Assembly (NCBI GenBank): GCA_039630545.1 | Contig: JBCNUU010000003.1 | Span: 173,512-237,511, forward strand | Length of the DNA: 64,000 bases | Direction: 5' to 3' | DNA from: Endomicrobiia bacterium | Lineage (GTDB): Bacteria > Elusimicrobiota > Endomicrobiia > DTEH01 | Part shown: one piece after another, positions 54,501 through 60,500 of the stretch | Layout of the letters: every line of letters starts with the position of its first letter | How positions within the stretch are numbered: the first letter of the stretch is position 1 | Made by a program: the position numbers

Positions 54501-57500
54501 ACTTTAGCTGATGCTTACAACCAGGCTGTTTGTATAGAGTTGACTCCAGAACATATTGGTTTAAGGAAACCACAAAATGGTGTATTAGTTGCCACCAACT
54601 TCTACTTATCCGATGAAGTTAAAAATTATGATATTCCACATAACGCATACTTTAAAAAGAAAAATCTACCACAACAGCTTCAAAACAAAAGAGTCCATCA
54701 ATCCAGTGAAGAAAGATATTATAGAATCCTCCAGTTGATAAATAAAAAAAACTATTATTCTTTAGAAGAAATTATAGACATTTTAAAAGATCACAACAAT
54801 AAACCTGAAGGTGATGACGATACTATCTGTCGCCATGGAGAACTACTTTCAACTCAAACAAGTATTATATTTTTGCCTAAAAAAAGAAAAATAAAAGTTT
54901 GCTTTGGTTTGCCATGCAAAAATGTCTATACGGAGTTTGTTTTAGATTAAATTTTTCTTCAGGTTGAAATTAGTTTAGATTTTTAGTAAAAATAGAATTA
55001 AAAAATTAAACTTTTAAAAATAAGGTTTAAATTTATATGATAAATTTACTAAAAATAGTAAATTTATTTGCAGCATTTTTTAATTTTTCTTTATCAGTGG
55101 CAGTAACACAGTGTAGACTTCCTTCCTTTAAGGATCTAAGAAACATAAACCTTGGAGTTTTTCTTTTAGCATTAACTTCTGCTTTGTGGTCCCTTAATAT
55201 GAGTTTGATGCTTTTTTGTAAGGAGAATATTTTAGTTGCTGAGATTTTTTCAAGACTTAACTGGATAGGTTCTTTTGTTGTAGCAAGTTATACATATTTG
55301 AGTTTGTCAATGACAAAACAGTATAAAAAAGCTGTAGTAATAGGTATTTTGCAATATATTTTTGCGCTGTTTTTTACGATTATAGCTTTTACAGAGTATG
55401 GAATAGTAAAAGTAATTTCTTGTTATCCACTTAAACGAGAATTTGGAGTTATTGCTCCTTTTTTTAGATTTTGGATAATGATATCTACAATTTATTCTGT
55501 GTGGTTAACAATAAATCATTACTTTAAGACAAAAGGTATGGAGAGATTGCAGTTTCAGTATTTTACTTTTGGCATTTTAGTATATGCTATAGTAGGTTCA
55601 GTTTTTAATTCAATCTTGCCGCTATTTGGATATGAAGGGTTAATATATCTTACTCCTTTCTTTTCTATCATATGGGTGCTTGCTTCGTTTTATTCTATTC
55701 ATAGTTATAAGCTTTTAGATATAGAAGTGGTGTTCTGTGATGTAATAAAATTTGCTGTGTTTATATTTATTGGTGTATTTGTAAATTATATTTTAATAAA
55801 TGTTTTTATAGAATTTGCTTCTTTGAATCCTTTATGGAGTTCGACATTAAGTGTGATAATAGTAGGCACTATATATTTCGCTACACCTATAAGAGAAAGA
55901 ATCAACAACACTATAAGAAACATAGTTTTAAGAAAAAGAACATCCTATCAAAAACTTTTAGAAAACACTGCAGCAGCTGTAGTTGAAATCCTGGATTTAG
56001 ACAATTTGCTTCAGTATGTGTTAAAACAAATAAATTCTTCACTTGGAGCAACAAAAATTTGTGTATTTTTGTTAGATGAAGAAACCAAAGACGAAGAAGG
56101 TGAACCAGTTTATGCTTTAGCTGCTTCTTATGGAATTGAAGAATTTAAAGTTACTTATTTTAAACAAAAAAAGATTATTAACTGGCTTAAAAAACATAAA
56201 GAACCCTTTCTTTTGGATGTTGCGTATCATACAATGGCACCAACTGAATACAAGCAGTTAGCAGATGATGCTGCTTTATTTGGGGCAATAATTATAGTTC
56301 CTATCATTTATAAAGGTGAGCTTATCGGTATAATAACTCTAGATCAGAAAAAAACAGATGGCACCATATTTGATATAGAAGATATAGAAATACTTAAAAC
56401 ACTTTCAGAGCAATTAGCGGTTGCTATACAAAATAGTAAAATTTATAAAGAGTTAAACACAGCTTATTTGCAGATTACCAGAGCTTTATCTTTAACTTTA
56501 GAATCAAAAGATGAGTATTTAATAGGACATTCGGATAATGTTACAAAATATGCTGTTCTTCTTGCTAAAAAATTAGGATTAAGTGAAAGAGACATATATA
56601 TTTTAGCACAAGCTTCTGTATTACATGATTTAGGAAAAGTTGGTATCCATGACTATATATTAAGTAAACCTGGAAAACTCACAAAGGAAGAATGGGAAGA
56701 GATGAAACAACATCCAATAAAAGGAGCAAAAATTCTTCAAGCTCTTCCGTTTTTAAACGATGTAGCGCGTATTATTCTTTATCATCACGAACACTACGAT
56801 GGTACCGGCTATCCAGAAGGACTTAAAGGAGAACAGATCCCTCTTCTTTCAAGAATACTTACTTTAGCAGATTCTGTAGACGCTATGTTGTCTGAGCGTC
56901 CTTATAAAGAAAGAAAAATGACAGTAGATGAAATGTTAACCGAAATAATTTCTCAGAAAGGCAAACACTTTGATCCATTCCTTGTAGATAAATTTGTTGA
57001 ATTGATAAAAGAATATCCTGAAATATTTAAACCTTCAAATCAAAAAAAGTCTGATGAAAGATCTGGAAATAATAACTGAAAAAATTTTTTTGTCTACTGA
57101 TGGGAATATAGATATAATAAATATTACTTCTTATTTATCTGAGATAATAGCTAAAAAGCAAATTCAAGACGGCATCCTTACTGTTTTTGTCCCAGGTGCT
57201 ACAGGTGCAGTAACTACTGTGGAGTATGAAAAAGAACTAATAAAAGATACAAAAGAAATGTTTTTAGAAATTATAAAAGAAAACAAAACATATCACCATA
57301 ATTCAACACATTTTCACGGAAACGCCACATCACATTTAAGAGCCACAATCATAGGGCCTTCTTTGACTATTCCTATAACAGATGGTAAACTACATCTGGG
57401 TGTCTGGCAAGAAGTTGTATTTATTGATTTTGACAACAGGCCAAGAGATAGGGAACTTGTTGTCAAGATAATAGGAGTAAAAAAATGATAAACGATATTT

Positions 57501-60500
57501 TTGCAAAATGTTATAAATTTATAGACGCAAGACAGGCACAACTTTTAGGTATATACCCATATTTTAAACCCATATCTACTGCACAAACCTCAGAAGTAAT
57601 AATAAACGGCGAAAGAAAAATTGTTTGTTGCTCTAATAACTATTTAGGTCTTACAGTTCATCCTAAAGTTAAGCAGGCAGCTATAAAAGCTATTAAAAAA
57701 TATGGAACAAGTTGCACTGGTTCAAGGTTTCTTAGTGGGTCTTTAGATTTACACGAAGAGGTTGAAGAAAAATTTGCAAAATTTATAAACAAAGAAGCAT
57801 CTATTCTTTTTACTACAGGTCATCATGTTAATCTTGGTGTAATATCTGCCTTGGTAAACAGAGGCGAGGTTGTAATTACAGATAAGTTAGATCATGCTTC
57901 TATAATTGATGGATGTATGATAGCAGAATATTTTGGTGGTGAAATGGTGAGATTTAGACACAACAACATGGAAGATTTAGAAAGGATTCTTAAAAAATAT
58001 GAAGACAAACCGAAACTCATAGTTGTAGACGGAGTTTTTAGTATGGAAGGTGATATATGTAACCTTCCTGAGATTATAAAACTTGCAAAGCTTTATGGTG
58101 CAAGAGTTATGGTGGATGATGCCCATGCTTTAGGGGTTTTGGGTAAAAATGGATGTGGAACTGCGGAGCATTTTGGACTTGAAGCAGAAACTGATCTTAT
58201 AATGGTTACTGCCTCTAAATCGCTGGCCTCCATTGGAGGTTTTATAGCAGGAAGAGAAGAAGTAATACACTACATAAAACATCACGCAAGATCTTTAATT
58301 TTTACTGCTGCTCTTCCTCCAGCTCAGGTTGCTGCGATTTCTGCTGCTTTAGATGTAATAAAAGAAGAACCCGAAAGAAGAAAAAGACTCTGGGAGATAA
58401 CAAACAGAATGCTTAAAAGTTTCAAAGAGTTAGGTTTTAACACAAGAAATTCACAGACTCCTATAATTCCTGTACTTATAGGTGGAGGAATACAAAAAGT
58501 ATTTTCTTTCTGGAGAGCTTTATATGATGAGGGAGTTTTTACTTCACCTGTTTTGCCTCCTGCTGTTCCGGAAGGAGAAGAGTTAATAAGGACAAGTTAT
58601 ATGGCTATTCATACTGATGAGCAATTAGAATTTATTATTGAAAAATTTGCTAAAGTTGGAAGAAAATTTGGTTTGATTCCTGGAGGAGGTTTACCAAAAG
58701 GTAAGATAATTAAGTTAAAGAAGACATCCTTTCCAAGAAAATTAGCAAAAAGATTTTTTGTGGAAACTAAACGGTGGATGAAGAAGTTATTTTTAGCAAA
58801 GCAAAAATAAAATGTATAATTTTTATGAAAATAAAAACTGTAGAAAACAACAAAGATCTGTTAAAATTTATCAAATTTCAATGGGAGGTTTACAGAAACG
58901 ATCCTTACTGGGTTCCACAACTTATATCTGATTTAAAACTTTTATTTGATGAAAAGAAAAATTATTTCTGGGAACATGCAGAAAAAAAGTTATTTTTTTT
59001 AGAAGACAATACTGGAAAAATTTTAGCAAGAGCAGCCGGTATAATAGATTACAACTTTATAAAATTCCACAACGAGAACACAGGTTTTTTTGCTTTTTTT
59101 GATTGTTTGAATTTAGAAAACTCAAAAGAAATATCATCCGCTATTTTGTCTGCTGTGGAAGAATGGCTTAAAAAGAAAGGAATGACTAAAATGTTAGGTC
59201 CAACAGCACCCTCTACAAACGATGAGATGGGACTTTTATATGAAGGATACGGAGTTGAGCCGGTACTTATGATGCCATATAATCCTTCCTACTATCACGA
59301 TTTATTGTTAAACTATGGATTTAAAAAGGCAAAAGATCTTTATGCCTACAAAATTACAAAAGAGACATTAGAAAAACAAAGAATTGAAAAATTAATAGAA
59401 GCAATTAAAAGAAAACAACCTTCTTTAGTTGTAAGACCCGTTAATCTTAAAAATTTTAAGCAAGAAATTGCCTATGCTGTTGAAGTTTACAATGCTGCAT
59501 GGGAGAAAAACTGGGGGTTCGTTCCATGGACTCAAAAAGAATTTATTTCGCAAGCTTTGAGGTTAAAACCACTTCTTAAGCCAGAATTTGTTTTACTTGC
59601 TTTTATAAAAGAAGAACCTGTAGGAATTATGATCACTGTTCCTAATTATAATGAAGTATTAAAAAAGCTAAATGGAAAACTGGGACCTTTTGAATTATTG
59701 AAATTTCTTTATTATAAAAATAAAATTAAATCTCTAAGAATAATGGTAATGGGAGTAAAAAAGGAATATAGAAACAAAGGAATAGAAGTCTTGATGTATT
59801 ACCATACGATGCTTGAGGGTTTAAAACAGGGTTATGAATGGGCAGAGCTTTCTTGGATACTTGAAGACAACCATATGATGATAAAAGCTGCTGAAGCGCT
59901 GGGAGGAATTCTTTATAAAAAATATAGAGTTTATGAGAAGATAATATGTTAATTTTATTTAAGGAGTCTTTAGGTATGGACAAAACAATTCGTGAACTTC
60001 ATGAAAAAATTCAAAGAGAATCGGTTTTTATTCAGGATCTAAAAAATGAAATTCATAAGATAATAATTGGTCAAGATTATGTAATAGATAGGGTGTTAGT
60101 TGGACTTTTAGCAAACGGGCACATTTTGATAGAAGGCGTTCCTGGGCTTGCTAAGACACTTCTTATTAAAACACTTTCAAAATGTATTCAAACAAAATTT
60201 CAAAGGATTCAATTTACTCCTGATCTTCTTCCAGCAGATATTATTGGCACACTTGTTTATAATCCGCAGACAACCCAGTTTGTTGTTAAGAAAGGTCCAA
60301 TTTTTGCGAATATAATTTTAGCAGATGAGATAAACAGAGCACCTGCAAAAACCCAGGCGGCTTTGCTTGAAGCCATGCAAGAAAAACAGGTAACCATAGG
60401 AGAGCAAACTTACAGACTTGAGGAACCATTTTTAGTTTTAGCAACTCAAAATCCAATAGAACAGGAAGGCACATATCCTCTGCCAGAAGCCCAGGTTGAT

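Follow-up and report, generated by a model that had tools for sequence, protein, structure and literature searches.

Adjacent genes for a serine palmitoyltransferase-like enzyme and a candidate ceramide synthase predict sphingolipid synthesis in a hot-spring Elusimicrobiota bacterium

Bacterial sphingolipids were long considered rare, and genome surveys now predict them for dozens of phyla; to our knowledge, almost none of these predictions has been checked chemically. Two adjacent genes in the window, a 64,000-nucleotide stretch of DNA from an Endomicrobiia bacterium (phylum Elusimicrobiota), raise the question of whether this lineage makes such lipids as well. The genome-wide survey's note had described them as genes for a serine palmitoyltransferase (Spt) and a homolog of the Caulobacter-type bacterial ceramide synthase (bCerS), and had proposed that the bacterium and most of its phylum make ceramide-based sphingolipids for the outer membrane. 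Full-text searches, with the supplements of two surveys outside their reach, returned no statement on sphingolipid synthesis in Elusimicrobiota. Judged from its genes, this hot-spring bacterium, together with many of its relatives, probably makes a sphingolipid.

The span 57485-59952 is filled exactly by two co-directional open reading frames on the forward (+) strand. The first of these (gene 1, 57485-58810, +) encodes an alpha-oxoamine synthase of 441 residues; its best matches, and also its predicted function, are those of a serine palmitoyltransferase. The protein matched Pfam Aminotran_1_2 (190.6 bits), and its top NCBIfam model, the best of all families, was the serine palmitoyltransferase model NF047600. 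The scores were below the curated cut-offs for this model (509 vs 640 bits) as well as for NF047599 (375.5 vs 500 bits) and NF047603 (309 vs 670 bits); these three Spt models are lineage-specific (CFB, Beta, and Alpha, respectively), and a Caulobacter control genome likewise remained below the NF047603 cut-off in a six-frame search. The best solved relative was the Sphingobacterium-type SPT (3a2b/8guh), which aligned with residues 12-393 at 388 bits (E 5.6e-115), compared to 288 bits for the next kind of enzyme in the PDB. Residues His137, Asp211, His214, and Lys245 aligned with identical residues in 3a2b. We take Lys245 to form the Schiff base with PLP and the other three residues (His/Asp/His) to contact the cofactor, as in fold-type I PLP enzymes of the oxoamine synthase family; all four are conserved.

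A tree of oxoamine synthases was built from 87 rows, including E. coli Spt, BioF, and Kbl. The window Spt was placed in an 82-row clade with E. coli Spt (SH-aLRT 95) that also held 60 or more cluster-linked enzymes, although the branch of E. coli Spt is long and a long-branch warning marks its placement as unsure. Outside this clade were E. coli BioF and Kbl, as well as the oxoamine synthases (36% identical to Spt) of two relatives, G022 and G002. The window Spt is nearest to Bacteroidota-type enzymes and not to the alpha/beta/gamma-proteobacterial subgroup.

The second open reading frame (gene 2, 58825-59952, +) starts with ATG 14 bp after the Spt stop codon and encodes 375 residues. An in-frame upstream GTG would extend it to 392 residues (58774-59952, +). 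The ATG at 58825 is the more likely start because the homologs are 367-376 residues long and cover 98-100% of the 375-residue form. The product showed a full-length match to E. coli K-12 YghO (30% identity in an alignment of 384 positions, with 197 bits and E 5e-64), whereas Pfam Acetyltransf_1 matched only weakly and no NCBIfam model matched. The family is very large, with 6941 clusters at E<=0.001. YghO is named in the text of PMC9386255 as a homolog of Caulobacter CC_1154 (aca), which is needed for dihydroceramide synthesis. Gene 2 encodes a tandem-GNAT N-acyltransferase of the YghO/bCerS family and is a candidate ceramide synthase gene. Both identities proposed in the survey's note hold: the best NCBIfam and PDB matches of gene 1 are serine palmitoyltransferases, with which the tree agrees, and gene 2 has its full-length match to YghO.

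The AlphaFold2 model of the gene 2 product (mean pLDDT 95.7) had as its top Foldseek matches the tandem GNATs 7q3a (MAB_4324), 5kf1 (Clostridium glucosamine N-acetyltransferase), 2wpw, and 1ozp (mycothiol synthase MshD), with E-values from 7e-14 to 7e-11 and TM-scores of about 0.6-0.7. The fold is the same, with two GNAT domains per chain, and the solved enzymes transfer acyl groups to small-molecule amines, as is predicted for gene 2. The modeled fold is thus consistent with amine acylation as the predicted activity. In contrast, the identity to these enzymes is only 11-16%, and they transfer acetyl to sugars or thiols, whereas the gene 2 product would transfer a long-chain acyl group to a lipid.

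The order of the two genes recurs in relatives and in other phyla. In 17 of the 20 Elusimicrobiota loci sampled, Spt immediately precedes the acyltransferase gene. Among 80 loci from public genomes, nearly all of other phyla, 63 had Spt no more than 3 kb from the acyltransferase, 54 had the reductase no more than 5 kb from the pair, and 52 had both Spt and reductase. In the remaining 17 loci, some of which are short contigs, Spt was not found at this distance; the link between the acyltransferase family and Spt is not universal. Natural fusions of an N-terminal Spt-like oxoamine synthase with a C-terminal gene 2-type domain also occur (P0170, P0202). In other lineages, the acyltransferase is fused to PilZ (P0267, P0269). 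The neighbors of the pair in the window encode a GAF-HD protein, YjbQ, and a MoxR ATPase.

The third enzyme of the known pathway, the ceramide reductase (CerR), was approached through the relatives. An epimerase-family gene of ~327 codons is located directly upstream of Spt in 8 of the 20 Elusimicrobiota loci and adjoins the acyltransferase gene in a ninth. The orthologue of this Spt-linked reductase in the bacterium's own genome (39% identity, 229 bits; next match 62 bits) lies on another contig (G000:C34:31781-32761) and is a candidate ceramide reductase of the extended-SDR type, with Pfam Epimerase and 3Beta_HSD matches. It is also the best match in this genome for the epimerase of the E. 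coli sphingolipid cluster (92 vs 43 bits), to which it is 24% identical over 306 residues. In this genome, the gene is unlinked to the Spt pair and is surrounded by housekeeping genes. We consider its product a credible third enzyme, as predicted from homology. The survey's note had cautioned that its CerR assignment was weak; with this candidate, the caution is largely lifted, although the identity to the E. coli enzyme remains at only 24%.

In the proposed pathway, Spt, a PLP enzyme, would condense L-serine with a long-chain acyl thioester to 3-ketodihydrosphingosine. The tandem-GNAT enzyme of the YghO/bCerS family would then N-acylate the amine from acyl-CoA, and the extended-SDR reductase encoded on C34 would reduce the 3-keto group to yield a dihydroceramide-type lipid. 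The acyl donor of Spt is most likely acyl-CoA as well, because no dedicated acyl carrier protein (ACP) or acyl-ACP synthetase was found and Spt is nearest to Bacteroidota-type enzymes. Counterparts of the E. coli AcpR, AasR, and LptF/LptG paralogues were searched for in this genome at E<=1e-4, and none was found. The proposal is based on the homology of the three proteins and on the conserved linkage and co-distribution of their genes; from these we infer the substrates, the order of the second and third steps, the head group, the location in the outer membrane, and the expression of the genes and production of the lipid. It is thus likely that Spt and the acyltransferase catalyze the first two steps of ceramide synthesis as known from other bacteria, with the last step contributed by a third gene elsewhere in the genome.

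The corresponding pathway of Caulobacter crescentus comprises Spt, bCerS (CC_1154/aca), and CerR (CC_1164/epi) (Olea-Ozuna 2021 and Stankeviciute 2022, as cited in PMC9386255 and PMC11087976). Here, too, an oxoamine synthase, a YghO-type acyltransferase, and an epimerase-family reductase are present, often clustered and with the same predicted chemistry; this is a likeness by family and not by alignment with the Caulobacter proteins. The two systems differ in that this genome yielded no dedicated ACP or acyl-ACP synthetase, the reductase gene is unlinked in this genome, and the window Spt is of the Bacteroidota-like subgroup. What the genes predict is the known Spt-bCerS-CerR pathway, now for one more lineage.

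In non-K-12 E. coli, the cluster yghO-aasR-epi-acpR-spt (BL21 ECD_02850-02854) is described by Padilla-Gomez et al. 2022 (PMC9386255), whose text includes an assay of the SPT. The same layout is present in strain UPEC-245U; the genes next to yghO in a non-K-12 strain are annotated as spt, acyl carrier protein, NAD-dependent epimerase/dehydratase, and fatty acyl-AMP ligase. The best matches of the E. coli Spt, YghO, and epimerase in the present genome are the window Spt (38% over 373 residues), the acyltransferase (30%), and the C34 reductase (24%), respectively. In contrast to the present locus, E. coli adds AcpR, AasR, and LptF/LptG paralogues, and its yghO is transcribed divergently, whereas here the acyltransferase gene follows Spt on the same strand. 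With its place in a sphingolipid cluster, YghO of E. coli does not speak against a sphingolipid role. The caution in the survey's note that YghO-type enzymes also occur in bacteria without sphingolipids is thereby weakened.

Similar reasoning was applied by Ding et al. 2024 (PMC11334938), where membership in an Spt-like clade together with nearby bCerS/CerR homologs is taken as sphingolipid capacity, and Spt-like proteins are reported in Black Sea MAGs of 38 phyla. The main text of that study does not mention Elusimicrobiota, the phylum list being in a figure and a supplement that lay outside our search. According to the same text, the genes of Cloacimonadota are not co-localized, which agrees with one of our loci (L099).

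The same three-enzyme logic could operate with an amino acid other than serine, a choice that cannot be read from the comparisons made here. Alanine or glycine would lead to a 1-deoxy-ceramide-like lipid and cysteate to a capnine-type sulfonolipid, so the product would be an N-acyl amino-alcohol lipid and not a classical sphingolipid. The solved cysteate-C-fatty acyltransferase 28eh is clearly homologous to the window Spt, but its 237 bits compare with 388 bits for the SPT structures. Anaerobes yield 1-deoxy and sulfono-1-deoxy ceramides, as stated in the text of Ding et al. 2024 (PMC11334938), and the window Spt is under every curated Spt cut-off. The best score in the genome for the cysteate synthase model TIGR03844 was, however, 48.6 bits against a cut-off of 324.9 bits, with the limitation that this methanogen-based model could miss a bacterial type. 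On these two comparisons, a sulfonolipid (capnine) pathway is not supported, and we regard a non-serine substrate in general as unlikely.

It is more doubtful still that the intact genes lead to a lipid made in small amounts or only under certain conditions, for instance in signaling or stress, and not to a bulk lipid of the outer membrane. LpxC scored above its cut-off, which makes lipid A synthesis probable; a sphingolipid need not take the place of lipid A. The neighboring genes of the pair are regulatory or unrelated, and the PilZ fusions hint at c-di-GMP control in other lineages. All three genes are nevertheless kept across many small genomes (1.0-2 Mb) of several families, which argues for a core role.

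That gene 1 is instead a housekeeping oxoamine synthase (BioF of biotin synthesis or Kbl of threonine breakdown) with an unrelated GNAT gene beside it is highly improbable: gene 1 is the sole match to the alpha-oxoamine synthase family in this 95.5% complete genome and scored 389 bits against the bioF cut-off of 426 and 363 bits against the Kbl cut-off of 460, but E. coli BioF and Kbl fall outside its clade in the tree, and the Spt-GNAT adjacency recurs in relatives and in mostly other-phylum loci, with the two also fused in P0170 and P0202. A role in biotin or threonine metabolism is unlikely because this single oxoamine synthase is accompanied by no passing BioB (best 114 vs 225 bits), BioA (best 237 vs 405 bits), or Tdh (no match in the genome).

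The preferred reading, a serine-based ceramide pathway, was followed through 401 Elusimicrobiota genomes of 123 genera. Spt was detected in 285 genomes, the acyltransferase (E<=1e-10) in 292 genomes and 72 genera, and the reductase in 213 genomes. The tallies per family run in parallel, the same families having all three genes; in family f20, the low count of the reductase (52 of 118 genomes) is a threshold effect. Spt and the acyltransferase were found in none of the sampled genomes of families f25 (9), f26 (6), f28 (2), and f30 (4), and f29 had the genes in one of 48 genomes. The earlier count of the acyltransferase in 171 of 201 genomes thus points in the same direction, but the share is smaller in the larger sample. 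The extension to most of the phylum was overstated because several families have none of the three genes.

Three relatives with genomes of 1.0-1.3 Mb (G022, G002, and G169) contain adjacent and intact acyltransferase and reductase genes but no Spt orthologue. Their only oxoamine synthase is 35-36% identical to Spt and groups with BioF and Kbl. Speculatively, these bacteria might build ceramides by salvage from imported long-chain bases or keto-bases, with the pathway being an envelope trait ancestral to several Elusimicrobiota classes, the hot-spring lineage included; we hold this combined scenario to be improbable.

Elusimicrobiota have named cultured members, and a lineage-wide lipid test is therefore possible; Endomicrobium proavitum, whose homolog (P0087) is 49% identical to the window acyltransferase, could serve as the test case. 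For annotation, proteins now labeled "hypothetical", "GNAT N-acetyltransferase", or "epimerase" would gain a specific role in a pathway.

Finally, the window Spt carries a C-terminal extension of 45 residues (58673-58807, +), which the solved enzyme is without; the alignment with 3a2b ends at residue 393. Eighteen Elusimicrobiota Spts were compared with the E. coli enzyme, which lacks the long basic tail and its motif; both are present in the window Spt and in 10 of its 17 relatives. The tail in the window is strongly basic (15 Lys/Arg and 1 Asp/Glu), terminates in a conserved W-x-K-x-L-[FW] motif, and is possibly a membrane-binding helix.

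The genome-wide survey's note had placed a serine palmitoyltransferase gene (Spt) next to a candidate ceramide synthase gene, and the ORF calls bear this out: the span is filled by two co-directional ORFs on the + strand, at 57485-58810 (Spt) and 58774-59952 (an acyltransferase of the YghO/bCerS family). For the acyltransferase, the ATG at 58825 is the probable start codon (ORF 58825-59952), which gives a protein of 375 aa; homologues have lengths of 367-376 aa and align over 98-100% of this form. Both genes are part of a dense array in which all genes lie on one strand. Spt shares its first 4 bp with the gene for YjbQ (57054-57488), and the acyltransferase shares its last 7 bp with that for a MoxR ATPase (59946-60974). 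Neither neighbour recurred beside the pair in the loci of 20 relatives. The contig, C23, and the window (G000:C23:173512-237511, where G000 is the window's own genome) share the same end point.

The best NCBIfam model for Spt was serine palmitoyltransferase NF047600, at 509 bits, which is below the model's cut-off of 640 bits; the next model scored 394 bits. Its best solved relatives were the Sphingobacterium-type SPT structures 3a2b and 8guh, with 388 bits, compared to 288 bits for a BioF/Kbl enzyme, 267 bits for the Sphingomonas SPT, and 253 bits for Kbl. The PLP lysine Lys245, together with His137, Asp211, and His214, is identical to the aligned residues of 3a2b. We consider it improbable that the starting amino acid of this enzyme is other than serine. 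A sulfonolipid route starting from cysteate was not supported, as the cysteate-C-fatty acyltransferase structure scored 237 bits versus 388 bits for the SPT structures, and no cysteate synthase was found above the cut-off. A housekeeping role as BioF or Kbl is contradicted by missing partner genes, by the phylogenetic tree, and by the gene linkage and domain fusions described below. Spt is the sole oxoamine synthase detected in G000 (95.5% complete), where neither BioB nor BioA scored above the cut-off and Tdh had no match. In a tree of 87 rows that included E. coli Spt, BioF, and Kbl, the window protein was located inside an 82-row clade with E. coli Spt (SH-aLRT 95), with E. coli BioF and Kbl outside; the branch of E. 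coli Spt is long, and the tool issued a warning.

Spt ends in a very basic C-terminal tail of 45 aa (58673-58807), with the final motif W-x-K-x-L-[FW]. The alignment of Spt to the solved structure 3a2b stops at residue 393. A basic C-terminal tail with this motif is also present in 10 of the 17 relatives' Spt proteins and is absent from E. coli Spt. This tail may be a membrane-binding helix.

The acyltransferase gave a weak match to Pfam Acetyltransf_1 and none to the NCBIfam models, and its sequence had no match among solved structures (best E 0.4). Its AlphaFold2 model was confident (mean pLDDT 95.7). In Foldseek, this model best matched 7q3a, 5kf1, 2wpw, and MshD 1ozp, tandem-GNAT enzymes whose acyl acceptors are the amines of small molecules. 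Full-length comparison with E. coli K-12 YghO gave 30% identity (197 bits). Its family is large, with 6941 representative clusters at a threshold of E<=0.001, of which 1188 remain at E<=1e-30; Atlas look-up returned generic 'N-acetyltransferase' clusters only, and member names for 10 family representatives were uninformative. In three representatives, an oxoamine-synthase domain is fused N-terminally to the acyltransferase domain (P0170 and P0202, of 780 and 777 aa, and the N-terminally truncated P0238, of 648 aa). Other architectures in this family are fusions of PilZ with the acyltransferase (P0267, 503 aa; P0269, 494 aa) and a tandem double acyltransferase (P0124, 784 aa).

A candidate for the third enzyme, the reductase, emerged from the relatives' set, which consisted of 20 acyltransferase loci taken from other genomes of Elusimicrobiota. 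In 17 of these loci, Spt was located directly 5' of the acyltransferase and had the same orientation. In eight of the 20, a gene of the epimerase family (~327 aa) directly preceded Spt; in a ninth locus (L017), which contains no Spt, it directly preceded the acyltransferase. The orthologue in G000 lies on another contig (C34:31781-32761), where its neighbours are gap, pgk, recX, and argJ. It shares 39% identity with the relatives' gene and scored 229 bits, compared to 62 bits for the next match in its own genome. It was also the best G000 match of the epimerase from the E. coli cluster (92 versus 43 bits), with 24% identity over 306 aa in the pairwise comparison. This gene is probably the one that the survey's note had listed as a 'weak CerR candidate'.

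The E. coli loci differed in gene content. In E. coli UPEC-245U, yghO lies beside genes annotated as fatty acyl-AMP ligase, NAD-dependent epimerase/dehydratase, acyl carrier protein, and 'serine palmitoyltransferase', and lptF/lptG paralogues are also present. In E. coli K-12 (3122000-3140000), an IS5 element directly abuts yghO, and no spt, ACP, epimerase, or acyl-AMP ligase genes are annotated beside it. Padilla-Gomez et al. 2022 (PMC9386255) group yghO (ECD_02850) with Caulobacter CC_1154, the N-acyltransferase 'aca', and ECD_02852 with CC_1164, the reductase 'epi'; the SPT of E. coli BL21 was assayed there.

The distribution of the three genes was determined in a phylum sample of 401 genomes including G000 (293 of high quality; 123 genera). 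The acyltransferase (E<=1e-10) was found in 292 genomes, 210 of the high-quality genomes, and 72 genera; the Spt orthologue (E<=1e-100) in 285, 205, and 72, respectively; and the reductase (E<=1e-25) in 213 genomes and 65 genera. Tallies per family ran in parallel for the three genes, with 9/9 each in f1 and 10/11 each in f19. None of them was found in f25 (0/9), f26 (0/6), or f28 (0/2), and f29 had one or two positives among 48 genomes. The reductase count in f20 was low (52/118) because the matches sit at the threshold. Three small genomes (G002, G169, and G022, the last with locus L017 at C1:848800-867800) have the reductase adjoining the acyltransferase and no Spt orthologue. Their single oxoamine synthase showed 35-36% identity, and that of G022 and G002 clustered with BioF and Kbl.

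A scan beyond this sample, with one genome per species, yielded 80 loci, all from uncultured MAGs and with no cultured reference producer among them; one locus (L105) was identical to an Elusimicrobiota locus (L022). The loci came from Gemmatimonadota, Eisenbacteria, Zixibacteria, Ignavibacteria, Bacteroidota, Acidobacteriota, Planctomycetota, Binatia, Nitrospiraceae, Calditrichaceae, and others. In 63 of the 80 loci, Spt and the acyltransferase were <=3 kb apart; the reductase was located within 5 kb in 54, and both Spt and the reductase were present in 52.

The three proteins fit the bacterial scheme as presented in PMC11087976 and PMC9386255. Spt would make 3-ketodihydrosphingosine, the acyltransferase would add the amide-linked chain, and the reductase would reduce the 3-keto group; the order of acylation and reduction is debated in these papers. 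At E<=1e-4, G000 yielded no homologue of the dedicated ACP or of the acyl-ACP synthetase, which fits the Bacteroidota/deltaproteobacterial Spt subgroup as described in PMC9386255. Therefore, acyl-CoA is the likely acyl donor of Spt. LpxC of G000 scored above the cut-off, and the predicted lipid would thus coexist with lipid A.

The annotation of Spt and ceramide synthase in the survey's note was correct and is well supported; it assigns an already known pathway to one more lineage and does not describe a new kind of system. Ding et al. 2024 predict that 38 phyla have the capacity for sphingolipid synthesis, of which their text names only some, and the Cavalier-Smith paper mentions sphingolipids for Bacteroidetes and Chlorobi only. 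Neither 'serine palmitoyltransferase' nor 'bacterial ceramide synthase' occurred together with an 'Elusimicrobi...' word in any paper of the full-text search, which did not cover the supplement of Ding et al. 2024 or the paper of Stankeviciute et al. 2022. Among the matches listed for the phylum or class name with 'sphingolipid' or 'ceramide', the titles were microbiome-correlation or unrelated. The pathway prediction is testable in culture.

Beyond the three genes, the conserved neighbours in the relatives' loci were a 135-aa ORF without a Pfam match, a DUF362 protein, and SMC, with no head-group enzyme among them. The 135-aa ORF (L011:10057-10464, with homologues in L013, L014, and L015) lies just 3' of the acyltransferase in 4 of the 20 loci and is absent from the window. 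The sole further window genes common to relatives' loci (L005, L006, and L017) are those for EtfB and a ferredoxin-domain EtfA, upstream of the pair (51699-53766, + strand). Three genes 5' of Spt, the window encodes a C45/Ntn-hydrolase family protein (53796-54950, + strand; Pfam AAT, 100 bits; NCBIfam C45_proenzyme, 187 bits), which also weakly matched the choloylglycine-hydrolase family of linear-amide hydrolases. It was absent among the neighbours conserved in at least four relatives' loci.

Promoter and terminator scans gave chance-level results (54 found versus 50.2 expected, and 6 versus 5.9, respectively). The public runs listed as containing 57000-60000 included no RNA runs; they were only three DNA runs, which belong to a single study and are labelled hot springs metagenome. 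This label raises the possibility of a thermophilic carrier.
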